A stretch of 21,544 nucleotides of DNA from a virus (taxonomy: Duplodnaviria > Heunggongvirae > Uroviricota > Caudoviricetes): the IMG/VR virus record IMGVR_UViG_2537561688_000020; one strand, written 5' to 3'. The notes beneath the pieces are model-generated. The model did no database searches. It had not been told where the DNA came from and saw only the letters and a list, made by a program, of their open reading frames with translations. The position numbers were made by a program, and so were the translations under genes. Positions 1,777 through 16,054 of the stretch are shown in pieces (position 1 is the first letter of the stretch; each line of letters opens with the position of its first letter).

Positions 1777-3372
1777 TTATGGCTGAGACTCTGGTTTAGC
1801 AATCTCGTTTATAAATTTCTTAGCTACAACAGTCTCATACTTTCTATAATCATCAAGATATTGAACATCTATATGATTTTTGTAGCGAGCATTAAATTTA
1901 TTTGCAGCCCCTGTTTTATCATCTTTACGTTCATCCGTTGGTCTGAAAAATTTATGGTAGCGGCGGGGTGATACCCCCTCAAAATCACAAAATATTACTT
2001 TGGAAGATTCTTCGTTCTTTGTTATTGCATCATTATGCAGATCAAGAGCAAGGCTTTTATCAAATGGCTCTATATATACTACTTTTTTTATTCCAGATGC
2101 GACAATATGCCTTGCACAGTTGTGGCAGGGGTAGGTTGTCGTAAAAAGAATTTTATCTTTAGTATCGCCGTTTTGTTTTCTAGCCATTGATGTAATGACG
2201 TCCATTTCAGCATGAATTGATCTGGAGTACTCCATTACACTTGATATTTTGCTGTCTTTGTAAATGCCTTCTGCAATATTATCTAATTTGTTTAGAAGTC
2301 GTGTTATATTAATATCGGCAACAGTTTGTCCTGCGGAAATACCTAATACACTTCTTACTTCGGTTGATAATATGCTTTTTATACGGTCTTTAATTTTTAG
2401 CTTGTTTGCATCATTATAACACTTACCACTTTTGTGAACGCATCGATGATCGTTATCAAAATCATCACTGCTATACAACCCGCCACCAGCTTTAGGTACG
2501 TCGTTCTTACCCACGGCAAGCAAATTCCCTTCATCATCAAACAGTGCAGCCCCTACTTGACGTGATAAACAAGCTGATTGTAATGATGTTGAAAAGGCAG
2601 CATACATACCTTTCTCGTTAAAAGTTGGTGTTAAACCATTTTTGCCATGAATAAGACCGAAAAACCGATCAATCTTCTTCTTTAATTCACTTTTTTGGCT
2701 GAAGTTATTTTTAATAAAAAAATCTGAATCAAGAATGGTTTCCCCGGTTCTTTGTCCATACGGATCAGAGGATTTATTATCAATATTGATAATTAAATGA
2801 AGGTCGTCCTTTGCCGATTCGTCAGCAATGAGATTCGGAATTCGGTAATCTAAATCGCGCAAAACTCCTAACAAATAGAAATTATGCTGATATATAACTC
2901 TGAATAACTCTATTTCTTCCGGCCTTTTGAATTGATCAATGATGAAGACAGTACCTTTATATTCATCATTATTATAATCAATATTCTTTTTCGCTGTTGC
3001 GATTGCTGCAATAGCAGCTTCTGCAAGCAACTCATTTTTTTCGTAATGTTTACGAAGTTTATTGGCAATATCCTGGAGTTTTAAATGTCTATTAACTTGT
3101 GTGCTTTCGGATACCTTCAGTGCTGCTGGCTCAAAATATAATGGGTCTTCCATAAGCGCACTTATGCGGATGTGTACAACATTATCCCCCCATTCTTTGG
3201 ATATCTCTTCGATAATTTTGTTTATCGTTCTCATGCCACATCCAACATATCCACACAATCCAAGATAAATATCTTTTGATTGTCGTGAATTCACAATCTC
3301 AAGTGATGATGCCGATGTTGAGCCTTTTTTTTCATTCAGCTTTTGTGGAGTTTTTTTTGCTGCTTCAGCCAT
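1777..3372 (-). CDS. dcdV: DcdV-like anti-phage deoxycytidylate (dCTP/dCMP) deaminase: N-terminal P-loop-like domain fused to C-terminal zinc CDA-fold deaminase
   Basis: 531-aa ORF. C-terminal zinc-deaminase signature: CLSRQVGAALF, then HAE (H387/E389), then PCHNC (C416/C419) and GIKKVVY, as in dCMP deaminases. N-terminal glycine-rich P-loop-like stretch GLCGYVGCGMRT. About 32% GC in a sampled stretch versus about 60% in the replication genes. Int-proximal cargo position. Confidence 0.7.
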   Translation of the reverse strand: MAEAAKKTPQKLNEKKGSTSASSLEIVNSRQSKDIYLGLCGYVGCGMRTINKIIEEISKEWGDNVVHIRISALMEDPLYFEPAALKVSESTQVNRHLKLQDIANKLRKHYEKNELLAEAAIAAIATAKKNIDYNNDEYKGTVFIIDQFKRPEEIELFRVIYQHNFYLLGVLRDLDYRIPNLIADESAKDDLHLIINIDNKSSDPYGQRTGETILDSDFFIKNNFSQKSELKKKIDRFFGLIHGKNGLTPTFNEKGMYAAFSTSLQSACLSRQVGAALFDDEGNLLAVGKNDVPKAGGGLYSSDDFDNDHRCVHKSGKCYNDANKLKIKDRIKSILSTEVRSVLGISAGQTVADINITRLLNKLDNIAEGIYKDSKISSVMEYSRSIHAEMDVITSMARKQNGDTKDKILFTTTYPCHNCARHIVASGIKKVVYIEPFDKSLALDLHNDAITKNEESSKVIFCDFEGVSPRRYHKFFRPTDERKDDKTGAANKFNARYKNHIDVQYLDDYRKYETVVAKKFINEIAKPESQP

Positions 3373-3568: not shown

Positions 3569-3912
3569 TTATCTTATCCAAACATAATAAAAAACCATAT
3601 GGCCTTTAGTGTACAACAAAACCATACTCTTTCCCCTCATTTTAGAGGGGGAAGTGTGGTCCACATCATGTTTTTTCCCACCCATGAAAATGTTCACCTA
3701 GGCTGGTGAGGCATTTTATGTACATCAACTCTTTGAGTTGAATCATTATTTTAGTATTTTTTCTATCATTGTGTAAATGTCTTCGTTTCAATACATCATG
3801 CTTGGGGAGCGGTCCCCGTTTCCTGATAATTAATGCTTGTGGATAGCAACGTCCGTGCCTGTATCGCTCAGACAGACGCTTACCGTGCCATAGACGTGTC
3901 TGTTCACATACG

Positions 3913-4107
3913 TCATTCAATAACTCCTGCAAACCTGTAAATCTTGCGTGAAGCCCATTTATTTGGGCATGATTTAATATCAGGATCTGGAAAATCAGGC
4001 CTGTACTTCTGGCCAGTTCTCCGGTTTACGCTGTTCCAGCGAAGAACTGTCGATACTGAAACGCCACAGAAGTCGGCGACTTGTTTAGTTGTCATTAAGT
4101 TGTTCAT
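3913..4107 (-). CDS. Excisionase/AlpA-like HTH DNA-binding protein
   Basis: 64-aa ORF with the motif MTTKQVADFCGVSVSTVLRWN typical of small phage excisionase-family HTH proteins. Start codon overlaps the upstream gene stop (TAATG). Confidence 0.65.
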   Translation of the reverse strand: MNNLMTTKQVADFCGVSVSTVLRWNSVNRRTGQKYRPDFPDPDIKSCPNKWASRKIYRFAGVIE

Positions 4108-4727
4108 TACTTCACCTCCTGCGGCGGTTCCGGTAGCGGCATCCAGTGGGTTACTTTCGATGCCGGTTCTTCTCCATTGTCAGTAACTGCCCACCATTTG
4201 TTTCTCGAACAATCATAATACCCTTCGAAGGTATCGCACTCAGTCCAGCCGTAAGACTTACCCCAACACCAAACATACTGTTTATCGTTCGGCATTCGCT
4301 CACTACAGCTTATCCAACCATCCGGAGTTACCGGAGAGTTGCCCGACAGCTTGTTCAACTTGTAAGTCTGGCTTACAGGTTTGGCACCATGAAGCATGGT
4401 GGCGCGGCAGGTGTTCCAGCCTTCATCAAAACCGACTATGCCATTATTTAAAGACGGACGAGCATCTGGCACCACCAGTACTGGCTTGGCTATATATAGC
4501 GGCTGAACATACCAGCCCTTTGATAACCAACTGTCAGCAATGTTTTTGCTCCTGGTTATTGCCGGAATACCTAAGCCATTGTCTGAATGCAGCCATGCCA
4601 CCGGCTCCTCTTCCAGCGATGCCAGAGCAATTTCATAAGCACGGCGCTCAATATCGTCTCGAACCTCTAGGCTGCTGATTCGTTCTTTGATTTCTTTAAT
4701 CAGTTCTTTATTGGTAAATGTGGTCAT
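4107..4727 (-). CDS. DUF551-domain phage protein
   Basis: 206-aa ORF with the DUF551 hallmark C-terminus (KVTHWMPLPEPP). Translationally coupled to neighbours. Confidence 0.7.
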   Translation of the reverse strand: MTTFTNKELIKEIKERISSLEVRDDIERRAYEIALASLEEEPVAWLHSDNGLGIPAITRSKNIADSWLSKGWYVQPLYIAKPVLVVPDARPSLNNGIVGFDEGWNTCRATMLHGAKPVSQTYKLNKLSGNSPVTPDGWISCSERMPNDKQYVWCWGKSYGWTECDTFEGYYDCSRNKWWAVTDNGEEPASKVTHWMPLPEPPQEVK

Positions 4728-6996: not shown

Positions 6997-7597
6997 TTTG
7001 CTGCTCCTCATCATATCGACCCTGCAAGGTCGGTTGGTTTCTCCACAAAACAGAGAAGAACACCTGCGGTGGCAGCCGCCCGGATGGATTGGGTTATGAG
7101 CCCGTCGTCCGGTGATGCTCTTCTCTGTTTTGTAAAAAGAGCGGTACCAGCCGGAAGCAAGTGTACAAACTGGTACCGCCAAAGCAGTGGCTGTTGTGGT
7201 GGGGTTGTCACTCAGGCGTATGGTCAACCTGACAATCCGGTGTCCTCAACGGGGAAAGAGTAACCCCGCCATACTTACCGCCGCGCCATTTCGCGGATTA
7301 CCACAACGCTGAGAGCACTTAGCCAGTTACGGCACCACACTTTGTCGCGGTTCCATAAATGCCCTCATCGTTGCACCCTGGTCTCTTCCCAGGCGTCAAA
7401 CCGAATCGCCACGCTGGTTAGGCGTCTTATCAGCATCATCATTGACTTGCACATTCCGGCTACCTGGTTTGTTTGCTCGAGCAAGGAGTGGATTGTCCCC
7501 TTTAACGTCACCAGACCGCTAACGACGCATGTGCCATACGCCGTGTTACAACCAAATTTTGTTTTAATCTTGCCTGTGTTATGTTTCTTTTAGATAC

Positions 7598-14168: not shown

Positions 14169-14921
14169 ATGAACCTTGAAGCCTTACCAAAATATTACTC
14201 CCCAAAATCTCCAAAATTGAGCGATGACGCACCGGCGACAGGCTCAGGTGGTTTAACGATTACGGATGTGATGGCTGCGCAGGGGATGGTGCAGTCGAAA
14301 GCACCGCTTGGGTTTGCCTTATTCCTGGCAAAAGTTGGTGTTCAGGATCCTCAATTTGCGATTGAAGGTCTGCTCAATTACGCGATGGCACTGGATAACC
14401 CGACATTGAACAAATTGAGTGAAGAAACCCGGTTACAGATCATCCCTTACCTTGTGAATTTTGCCTTTGCTGATTATTCCAGGTCTGCGGCAAGTAAGGC
14501 TCGCTGTGAGCATTGTGCTGGTACTGGATTTCATAATGTATTGCGCGAAGTGGTGAAACACTCCAGAAGCGGGGAATCTGTTATCAAGGAAGAGTGGGTG
14601 AAGGAACTATGTCAGCATTGTCATGGTAAGGGAGAAGTCAGCACAGCGTGCAGAGGGTGTAAGGGTAAAGGTATTGTCCTGGATGAAAAAAGGACCCGGC
14701 TTCATGGCACGCCTGTTTATAAGATTTGTGGGCGTTGCAATGGAAACCGGTTTAGCCGTTTACCAACCACACTGGCGCGGCATCATGTCCAGAAGCTGGT
14801 ACCAGACCTGACGGATTATCAGTGGTACAAAGGATATGCAGATGTCATTGATAAACTGGTTACAAAGTGCTGGCAGGAAGAAGCATATGCAGAGATACAA
14901 TTGAGAAATGTGACAAGATAA
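14169..14921 (+). CDS. Q-like late-gene antiterminator
   Basis: 250 aa from the ATG at 14169 preceded by GGAG. Cys-rich zinc-binding segment (CEHCAGTG ... CQHCHGKG ... CRGCKGKG). Followed by a candidate late promoter and terminator; position precedes the lysis genes. Confidence 0.65.
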   Translation: MNLEALPKYYSPKSPKLSDDAPATGSGGLTITDVMAAQGMVQSKAPLGFALFLAKVGVQDPQFAIEGLLNYAMALDNPTLNKLSEETRLQIIPYLVNFAFADYSRSAASKARCEHCAGTGFHNVLREVVKHSRSGESVIKEEWVKELCQHCHGKGEVSTACRGCKGKGIVLDEKRTRLHGTPVYKICGRCNGNRFSRLPTTLARHHVQKLVPDLTDYQWYKGYADVIDKLVTKCWQEEAYAEIQLRNVTR

Positions 14922-14951
14922 ATGGTTTTCGCCGAAGATGACGACATGATG

Positions 14952-14986
14952 CTTGCATTTTTCAAAAAATATGGATAAGATTTTCC
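14952..14986 (+). promoter_or_regulatory. Candidate late promoter (pR'-like) downstream of Q
   Basis: TTGCAT (14952-14957), 17-nt spacer, TAAGAT. A 10-bp direct repeat GATAAGATTT occurs at 14973 and 15015. A short leader runs to the terminator at 15030. Confidence 0.3.
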
Positions 14987-15029
14987 CAACGATGGGCTTT
15001 GTATGTCTACCGTTGATAAGATTTAAGAC

Positions 15030-15052
15030 CCCGCCACTGAGCGGGTTTTTTT
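15030..15052 (+). terminator. Rho-independent terminator (tR'-like), copy 1
   Basis: GC stem cccgc / gcggg with 6-nt loop cactga, followed by 7 T. Confidence 0.55.
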
Positions 15053-15084
15053 GTGCCAGATGTCTCATGAAACTATGAAATGGA

Positions 15085-15113
15085 TTGGTGCGTTAAACAT
15101 TTTTTCTTATTAT
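15085..15113 (+). promoter_or_regulatory. Candidate own promoter of the lipoprotein gene
   Basis: TTGGTG (15085-15090), 17-nt spacer, TATTAT (15108-15113). Lies between terminator copy 1 and the lipoprotein start. Confidence 0.3.
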
Positions 15114-15201
15114 CTTTTAGATTTTGGAGAGATGGTTAACGTCTGTATTCCAGAAACTCGATGATTATTTAATAAATTAGTTTCAATGATGCTTCTAGGT
15201 T

Positions 15202-15627
15202 ATGACTGTAATGAAAAAGGTATTAATAGCAGCGATAGGTTTTTGTTTAGTTGGTTGTGCAGGTATGAAATTACCTGAGTATTCGCAAGTTAAAGCAAGT
15301 CCGTATTATACAGATTGCCGTGCGTTTGCCATGGATGTTTATAAAAATGATGGATACAGCAAAATTGCGAAAACTACTATCCTTAGCATGGATGATGTGA
15401 AGGCTAGATATATTGTGACAGGGTGTGTAGTTGCTATGGGGAAAAACACTGTAGAGGAAATCAAAGCTGATCTCTCTGCTAAAGGGAGTTCTTTTGGGCT
15501 TATCAGTGGAGCTTGTTCTAGTGCGGCATGTCGGGTTGATGTAGAGCAGCAAATGAACGCTTATGTACTTGGTAGTTATTATGCTGCAAATAAAAAATTC
15601 CCGGATAAAATGAAAGCAGAGTTTTAA
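15202..15627 (+). CDS. Lipoprotein (cargo gene; candidate lysogenic-conversion or exclusion factor)
   Basis: Signal peptide with lipobox (MKKVLIAAIGFCLVGC). AT-rich (about 35% GC in a sampled stretch). Bracketed by two copies of the same terminator. Confidence 0.6.
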   Translation: MTVMKKVLIAAIGFCLVGCAGMKLPEYSQVKASPYYTDCRAFAMDVYKNDGYSKIAKTTILSMDDVKARYIVTGCVVAMGKNTVEEIKADLSAKGSSFGLISGACSSAACRVDVEQQMNAYVLGSYYAANKKFPDKMKAEF

Positions 15628-15706
15628 GTAAACCTTGTTTTCGATTATATGTCGAAGATAAATGTTAGTAACGGCATAATAAGTAAATATATAGCTGTGA
15701 TAGCAA

Positions 15707-15728
15707 CCCGCCACTGAGCGGGTTTTTT
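15707..15728 (+). terminator. Rho-independent terminator, copy 2 (identical stem-loop to copy 1)
   Basis: cccgccactgagcggg followed by 6 T. A 22-nt exact repeat of 15030-15051. Confidence 0.55.
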
Positions 15729-15850
15729 GTACCTGTAAACTTGGTGCAGTACAGTAAACACGCTGGTGGTCGTGAATACTGACTTTTTATCTTGCTGGCT
15801 TTTTAGACAAGAGTTATTGGTATGTCATGTTAACCAGAAGGGAAAAAGAC

Positions 15851-16054
15851 ATGCTAAAACAGCAAGATATGACAGAAACCGCCGCCGCAGTCCTTCATTT
15901 CTTACCTGCTGACAAGTGGGTAACGCCACGCATGATGACGAGAACTACCGGAGTAAGCGAAGCCCGGTGCCAGTTAATACTGACTCAGTTAGTTCTGGCG
16001 GGTCTGGCGAAGGATAACGGCGGGTACGGGAATAAATTCAGACGCTGCCAGTAA
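15851..16054 (+). CDS. Small hypothetical protein
   Basis: 67 aa from the ATG at 15851 preceded by AAGGGA. No recognisable domain. Confidence 0.3.
   Translation: MLKQQDMTETAAAVLHFLPADKWVTPRMMTRTTGVSEARCQLILTQLVLAGLAKDNGGYGNKFRRCQ

Follow-up and report, generated by a model that had tools for sequence, protein, structure and literature searches.

What is a small, AT-rich lipoprotein gene doing between two copies of the same transcription terminator in a lambda-like prophage, and how did it come to lie there? The question is raised by a stretch of Caudoviricetes DNA of 21,544 nucleotides (nt) (IMG/VR record IMGVR_UViG_2537561688_000020), called the window below, in which such a gene follows the late antiterminator gene Q. 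A preliminary description made from the letters of the window had proposed a promoter-gene-terminator cassette inserted at the late terminator. Empty sites in relatives, the deviant base composition of the insert and an alternative cargo at the same place support this proposal. The cassette is very likely a moron, a stand-alone cargo transcription unit situated in the late-operon leader directly after the late terminator tR' of a lambda-like prophage. The moron concept (Hendrix and Juhala) is reviewed in 'The moron comes of age' (PMC3594210). As phage cargo the cassette is of a familiar kind, an ordinary moron, and the lipoprotein family itself is uncharacterised.

The insertion is best seen from sites without it. 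The insert-specific DNA, 641 nt long (15064-15704, + strand), is missing from the empty sites and was detected in 215 of 5426 complete Escherichia coli genomes (4.0%). When the query included both flanks and at least 80% of it had to be covered, again 215 E. coli genomes were obtained, indicating one slot with constant flanks. The uninterrupted empty site, represented by a 120-nt spanning query, was nearly whole in 186 E. coli genomes. In a search of the phage collection, an identical 951-nt region was found in phages Ayreon and mEp460, in 15 Shiga toxin (Stx) 2c phages and in one Stx2k phage. Phages SfV and vB_EcoM-720R4 (720R4 below) match both flanks yet span just ~270 nt. The alignment showed that these two phages are devoid of the entire segment between the terminators and retain a single terminator. 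Their annotations give the order DUF968 gene, Q, one terminator, small open reading frame (ORF), DNA methylase and lysis genes. The comparison with empty sites that the preliminary description had suggested thus yields single-terminator sites in SfV, 720R4 and ~186 E. coli genomes, and the opposite case, in which all relatives carry the gene with both terminators, is contradicted by their existence. Presence or absence at one position in close relatives, the first mark of a moron, is therefore observed.

The second mark, deviant composition, is observed as well. The content of guanine plus cytosine (GC) is 36% in the insert and 39% in the gene, compared with 47% in the window and ~50% in the flanks, so the ~35% given earlier for the insert was roughly right. 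Along the window, GC dips to 31-41% over 15000-15700 and is ~50% on both sides. The third mark, a downstream terminator of its own, is provided by the right terminator copy (-12 kcal/mol). The slot has also received another cargo. In EC20 (NZ_CP060902.1, locus L004, 1630-2270), the place after tR' is filled by an unrelated gene for a hypothetical protein of 176 amino acids (aa), WP_000966854.1, for which no Pfam match was found. The slot is thus polymorphic, and it has served for cargo more than once. The EC20 cargo carries its own, different terminator ACCGCGTTCTCGCGGTTTTTTT, and the resident hairpin is without its T run (GCGGGTTAAATTATTTTTT). Because this T run is lost, transcription from the late promoter pR' may read into the EC20 cargo, and the terminator of the cargo may act as the working tR'.

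Some occupied sites have undergone further change. In E. coli NZ_OZ501612.1 (4147867-4149594), the match to the cassette is split in two pieces and an IS1B is annotated inside it. The IMG/VR locus L088 carries a decaying cassette with a mutated left terminator (CCCGCTGCTGAGCGGTTTTTTT) and a lipoprotein ORF cut to 132 aa. In ST95-type strains, represented by APEC E18055 (L005, 2370-2760), homology with the window stops ~60 nt past the right copy, between CGCTGGTGG and ACAAG, and behind the cassette lie tRNA genes for Ile, Lys, Thr and Gly, four in all, and a different holin. From this altered downstream region it follows that the cassette has recombined onto another late module in these strains.

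The position of the slot was defined from the late control region upstream of it. The Q protein (14169-14921, + strand) belongs to the lambda Q family (PF03589, E 1.3e-53) and shows 35% identity with lambda Q (E 6e-42); the gene lies outside the insert and is annotated as Q in Ayreon, SfV and 720R4. It is followed by a putative pR' with a sigma70 pause element (14953-14996, + strand). This promoter is composed of a -35 element TTGCAT (14953-14958), a 17-nt spacer, a -10 element TAAGAT (14976-14981) and, 6 nt further, AACGATGGG (14988-14996). Lambda pR' has TTGACT, 17 nt, TAAATT, 6 nt and AACGATGGG, so that spacer and pause geometry are identical in the two. In lambda, AACGAT is a -10-like element which causes the sigma70-dependent pause where Q loads. 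The stretch is nearly invariant among the window, Ayreon, SfV and 720R4 in the alignment, and presumably functions as pR' in the window. A lambda-family Q and a promoter with an AACGAT pause element, which together characterise a lambda-type late control region, are thus both present. A terminator structure is found downstream of pR', and its override by Q is predicted. Because lambda-family Q and the lambda pR' geometry including AACGATGGG lie upstream, the left terminator copy is read as tR', which would place the cassette in the late-operon leader. The RNA from pR' should end at the left copy with a predicted length of ~65 nt.

The resulting order in the window is Q, pR', left copy (tR'), 641-nt insert, right copy, resident late leader, DNA methylase and lysis genes. 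The first resident gene past the slot (15827-16054, + strand) is a winged-helix-like ORF of 75 aa, homologous to SfV orf47 (PHROG 331) and annotated in SfV, 720R4 and the Stx2k phage. The Q protein of the window also contains an extra Cys-rich segment of ~48 aa with DnaJ-type CXXCXGXG zinc-finger repeats, which is missing from lambda Q.

What do the two terminators themselves reveal? The 22-mer CCCGCCACTGAGCGGGTTTTTT has exactly two copies in the window (15030-15051 and 15707-15728), both on the + strand, as reported earlier, and no third site with up to 3 mismatches. Both copies were positive in intrinsic-terminator scoring. The left terminator (15030-15052, + strand) consists of a hairpin (15030-15045) and a T7 run, and the homologous place in SfV is annotated as a rho-independent terminator. 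Its stem has 5 GC pairs and a folding energy of -9.8 kcal/mol, as an A>C change at 15029 in the window costs it the two closing A:U pairs. The right terminator (15705-15728, + strand), composed of AA, the hairpin and T6, has a stem of 7 pairs and a folding energy of -12.0 kcal/mol. The preliminary description had regarded a 22-nt repeat as far beyond chance. No match occurred in 100 dinucleotide shuffles of the window, in agreement with this claim; the random-sequence model nevertheless overstates the surprise, because phage terminators of this class are common and the hairpin is their most frequent variant. Being so widespread, the hairpin makes the identity of the two terminators weaker as evidence of duplication than a random model implies.

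It is the flanking sequences, and not the 22-nt identity itself, that indicate the relatedness of the two copies. The 3' flank of the left copy, GTGCCAGATGT (15053-15063, + strand), is homologous to the SfV-type empty-site allele GTGCCTTGATGT in the alignment and the junction tables. The right copy with its 3' flank GTACCTGTAAAC is the same as the 720R4-type empty-site terminator. These flanks bear on the idea that the two terminators are unrelated, the cargo having brought a terminator of its own that happens to be the same common hairpin. In favour of coincidence, the loop is the commonest one (11 contigs) among CCCGC-N6-GCGGG-T6 terminators sampled without bias from 120 contigs, and both the EC20 cargo and the Salmonella cassette described below end in different hairpins. 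But the right copy and no fewer than 60 nt behind it agree letter for letter with the terminator region of the empty site, and the left copy with everything upstream is identical to the empty site too. Both copies therefore match resident alleles and not a foreign one, and coincidence is highly improbable.

Comparison of the junctions separated two terminator alleles. The SfV-type empty site has a G loop, T7 and GTGCCTTGATGT, followed by TGGCAGTAC. The left copy in the window, continued by T7 and GTGCCAGATGT, represents this SfV-type allele, and the right copy, continued by T6 and GTACCTGTAAACTTGG, represents the 720R4-type allele. The survey covered 16 occupied loci for which both junctions were available. 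The left copy is followed by T7+GTGCC in all 16, with A, G or C as the loop base; the right copy is followed by T6+GTACC in all 16, with A in the loop and one exception. About half of the occupied loci differ in the loop, and perfect 22-nt identity between the copies was found in 6 of the 16. Left and right are thus distinct, stable alleles. Because the copies keep separate alleles across the 16 loci, the exact identity in the window is best read as one allelic state and not as the footprint of a fresh duplication. An in-register 11-mer at 15106 and 15783, with the same 677-nt spacing as the terminator copies, had hinted at a duplication reaching past the terminator. This candidate was rejected, the local alignment of the post-terminator sequences being matched or beaten by 409 of 1000 shuffles.

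How could such an arrangement arise? An origin as transposon, insertion sequence or integron cassette was rejected. The ORFs of the insert include no transposase or integrase gene, no terminal inverted repeats were found at the insert ends, and the repeat is a 22-nt terminator in two allelic variants. Since the left copy is of the SfV type and the right copy of the 720R4 type, the arrangement would represent a hybrid joint, or a single-crossover integration between related terminators, instead of a target duplication of the transposon style. As the simplest origin we infer either a recombination, at or near the terminator, of one genome of the SfV type with one of the 720R4 type, or a single crossover that joined the terminators of donor and resident.

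The reverse history, in which the cassette is ancestral to the phage group and the empty sites are later deletions by recombination between the terminator copies, finds some ground in the same junctions. Recombination between the 22-nt repeats yields exactly a 720R4-type empty site, and occupied and empty sites are similarly frequent (215 and ~186 genomes). The SfV-type empty site, with its G loop and T7 and with GTGCCTTGATGT joined to TGGCAGTAC, is by contrast impossible by repeat recombination. The insert is of foreign GC, other cargos occupy the slot and the gene family occurs at unrelated loci. Taken together, these observations require at least one insertion, and a purely ancestral cassette is quite unlikely.

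The hairpin was next followed beyond this locus. With A or G in the loop, the 22-mer was found in at least 120 IMG/VR contigs, compared with 6 and 0 contigs for two loop-shuffled control hairpins. The hairpin CCCGCC[A/G]CTGAGCGGG with its T run (IMG/VR loci L018-L137) occurs at loci of 41-65% GC, with at least 50 unrelated contexts on its upstream side and at least 59 on its downstream side. Its loop falls in the class CNYYGA, which is favoured in general and accounts for ~32 of the 120 sampled contigs. The hairpin is placed directly behind Q genes of three Pfam families (PF03589, PF06323 and PF06530/DUF1133), and it also stands at the end of a WYL-like and an ORF6N cargo gene, ahead of the same downstream module as in the window. 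Homology to the empty site begins or ends at the terminator edges in over 1000 E. coli genomes, and the hairpin thus marks a mosaic boundary. The two other cargos show further details. A 214-aa WYL-like cargo in L034 (~2250-3062) lies directly 5' of the terminator, with a downstream leader as in the window; an ORF6N-domain cargo in L106 (~3800-4534) lies directly 5' of the same terminator; and a motif of ~35 nt, GTTAAGAGTGGTTACTTCGCCACACAACTTAAA, precedes both.

Such a distribution raises the possibility that the terminator is a portable recombination site at which a unit of terminator, promoter and gene integrates and excises by single crossover, for example through phage Red or a RecT-type recombinase. 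The contexts and the shuffled controls described above fit this idea, as do the breaks of homology at the terminator edges and the occurrence behind Q genes of three families. The same 22-mer also fronts the Salmonella cassette behind another Q family, where homology starts exactly at the hairpin. A crossover further predicts a donor-type flank after the left copy and a resident flank after the right copy, as observed. Against these points, 22-30 nt is a very short homology, and the two copies stay distinct (T7+GTGCC and T6+GTACC) in all 16 loci, which argues that exchange is rare. The E. coli cassette was never found at another copy of the terminator, and the recurrence of a favoured loop class is possibly in part convergence. 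We know of no circular intermediate of the cassette. A portable site is accordingly rather unlikely. The broader proposal that the shared hairpin is a recombination joint, a 'poor man's att site', which swaps cassettes and Q modules among the lambdoid phages of E. coli and Salmonella, with the lipoprotein cassette as one such mobile unit and its product as a new lysogen envelope factor, made also in Stx2c and Stx2k phages upstream of the toxin genes, is doubtful to a similar degree and is entertained here as a speculation.

For a stand-alone unit, a promoter of the cargo gene is expected within the insert. A candidate sigma70 promoter, TTGGTG-17-TATTAT, lies at 15085-15113 (+ strand), where the preliminary description had placed it. 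It agrees with the consensus at 8 of 12 positions and is under the threshold of the promoter scan. In the Salmonella cassette, TTGGTA-18-TATCAT aligns to it with the -35 and -10 hexamers kept; the E. coli and Salmonella upstream regions show ~60% identity from terminator to start codon, and synonymous divergence (dS) in the gene is ~1.8. The proposed promoter is thus backed by the retention of its hexamers and weakened by its poor consensus. This weakness leads to another explanation, in which the gene lacks its own promoter and is expressed purely late through Q read-through, with a lytic role such as receptor masking. Phage T5 Llp masks the receptor so that progeny escape loss on cell debris. 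The gene does lie on the late strand within the late leader, and a Q-modified polymerase must cross it anyway. But the hexamers are kept across a dS of ~1.8, a second terminator behind the gene would be needless, and the orthologues on Serratia chromosomes are without Q. No sequence or fold similarity to the Llp and Cor families was found either, and purely late expression is unlikely.

In the stand-alone reading, expression of the cassette would proceed as follows. In a lysogen without Q, polymerase starting at pR' would halt at the left copy after ~65 nt. The cargo would be transcribed from its own weak sigma70 promoter, with the transcript ending at the right copy, which would shield the methylase and lysis genes. 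The right copy would be needed because a promoter placed past tR' would otherwise drive these genes in the lysogen. After induction, Q-modified polymerase would pass both terminators and the cargo would also be expressed late. In lambda tR'/6S RNA and in the StxS small RNA (sRNA), a constitutive pR' transcript is likewise stopped by a terminator soon after a sigma70-dependent pause element. Lambda 6S RNA has 194 nt, compared with the ~65 nt predicted here, and the terminator of the window is doubled.

A known sRNA was also considered as transcript of the cassette. The window at 7141-7161 (+ strand), in the early/immunity region, exactly matches the 5' part of sRNA-17, an ArcA-modulated small RNA of an mEp460-like prophage in E. 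coli K1 RS218 (PMC7719688). The northern-probe sequence of sRNA-17 (PMC7719688) is absent from the window. As its 5' part maps to 7141-7161, sRNA-17 is unrelated to the cassette and was rejected.

The cargo itself is a lipoprotein gene (15211-15627, + strand). An ORF of 141 aa is open from an alternative ATG (15202-15627), as described before; the ORF and its lipobox were confirmed, and the more likely start is the ATG at 15211, which gives 138 aa. From this start, the protein has the signal peptide MKKVLIAAIGFCLVGC followed by AG, with the lipobox LVGC encoded at 15247-15258. A basic n-region, a hydrophobic h-region and a lipobox of the form [LVI][ASTVI][GAS]C are all present, as in bacterial lipoprotein signals. 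The mature protein has ~122 aa and possesses four invariant Cys besides the lipobox Cys, and the Gly-Cys of the lipobox is invariant in 9 homologues. The ratio of nonsynonymous to synonymous substitution rates (dN/dS) is 0.04-0.18 against relatives from E. coli, Salmonella and Serratia, and therefore the gene is real and constrained. With Ala at +2, the protein, presumably processed by Sec, Lgt and LspA, probably has its anchor in the outer membrane and faces the periplasm, where its four conserved Cys would likely form two disulfides. AlphaFold2 predicted a helical bundle with a predicted local distance difference test (pLDDT) of 83.

The preliminary description had recognised no family for the lipoprotein, and homology and structure searches agree, the only PHROG match being PHROG 4748 (E 7.5e-91), a family of unknown function. 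The lipoprotein gave no Pfam match at E<=0.1, no NCBIfam match and no PADLOC defence family. Fold searches of PDB and BFVD returned nothing informative, a profile search of PDB sequences gave chance matches to uL14m only, and Rfam over 14800-16000 gave only sub-threshold chance matches. In the literature the accession of the protein, WP_000217632, is not mentioned and the gene is not described.

The family is very small, forming 11 clusters at 90% identity in a search of 5.8 billion proteins; with a family profile, 8 were found among 1.84 billion cluster representatives. A Salmonella homologue with 77% identity is situated between a different Q (DUF1133/PF06530) and holin, with the same 22-mer in front and a different hairpin behind. 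Further Salmonella prophages have a homologue in their early region, close to VapBC and exonuclease VIII. A homologue with 55% identity was found on the 111-kb Buttiauxella plasmid CP110081.1 (L007, 4001-4745). There, another gene for a small lipoprotein (99 aa, without a Pfam match) follows 10 nt downstream, and a Peptidase_U49 gene as well as genes for DNA polymerase III alpha are found near the pair. Among four Serratia genomes (L014-L017), three share one chromosomal locus between emrB and trxC, as judged from ORF translations, and the fourth has its homologue in a different neighbourhood. All four Serratia homologues have a GC content of 42-45% within flanks of 55-60%, and the phage copies may have come from Serratia-like bacteria. 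One metagenome contig carries a homologue beside blc. The chromosomal Serratia orthologues speak somewhat against a phage-specific role such as receptor masking and favour a general envelope or protective role. The preliminary description had put forward surface exclusion or virulence as hypothetical roles. The most likely role is an envelope-modifying lysogenic-conversion factor expressed in lysogens, which is suggested with much less certainty than the moron itself.

Some observations count against the moron with an envelope product as described. The candidate promoter has only 8 of 12 consensus positions and was missed by the scan. Sorting of the lipoprotein to the outer membrane is deduced from a single feature, the +2 rule. 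The order of events may differ from the one proposed, as the 720R4-type empty site is also the exact product that recombination between the repeats would leave.

Compared with known systems, the cassette shares with lambdoid morons its presence or absence at one position between near-identical phages and its deviant GC. A promoter-like element, one gene and a terminator are likewise common to both, as is dispensability for phage growth. It differs in having a terminator on both sides, because the insert sits directly after tR'. With the stx locus of Stx phages it shares the place in the late leader, after pR'/tR' and ahead of the lysis genes, and the logic of Q-dependent read-through, whereas its cargo is a lipoprotein and not a toxin, is closed by a terminator of its own and has no attached tRNA genes. 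The two cargos meet in the Stx2k phage and in the CC119 Stx2c phages, where the order is Q, tR', lipoprotein, tR' copy, small ORF, methylase, tRNAs and stx2AB. Therefore, stx2 lies behind two tR'-type terminators and the cassette in these phages. The CC119 Stx2c phages are integrated at prfC (PMC10132054).

The slot had been described earlier as one that carries stx or bor-like genes. In Stx2c and Stx2k phages, stx2 is located further down the same late leader. Lambda bor does not occupy this slot and lies beyond Rz. Lambda Bor/Iss, a serum-resistance factor, is also a small prophage-encoded lipoprotein carried as a moron; it differs in genome position and shows no sequence match (Pfam, NCBIfam), and the protein of the window is predicted to be all-helical. 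The exclusion lipoproteins Cor (phi80, N15 and mEp phages) and T5 Llp are small phage outer-membrane lipoproteins too, which makes a functional analogy plausible. They differ in that the lipoprotein of the window has no Pfam match, no match to an exclusion-annotated PHROG and no fold match, and its orthologues are chromosomal in Serratia.

The cassette finding leaves the current understanding of phage biology unchanged. It provides a clean, well-documented case of cargo entry into the lambdoid late leader, a region which also carries Shiga toxin genes, and it shows why inserts in this leader require a terminator behind them. Conservation and purifying selection make the lipoprotein family an inexpensive candidate for knockout and phenotype screening. 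In the phages which carry stx2 further downstream, the second tR'-type terminator and the envelope lipoprotein ahead of the toxin genes might affect toxin expression or lysogen fitness.

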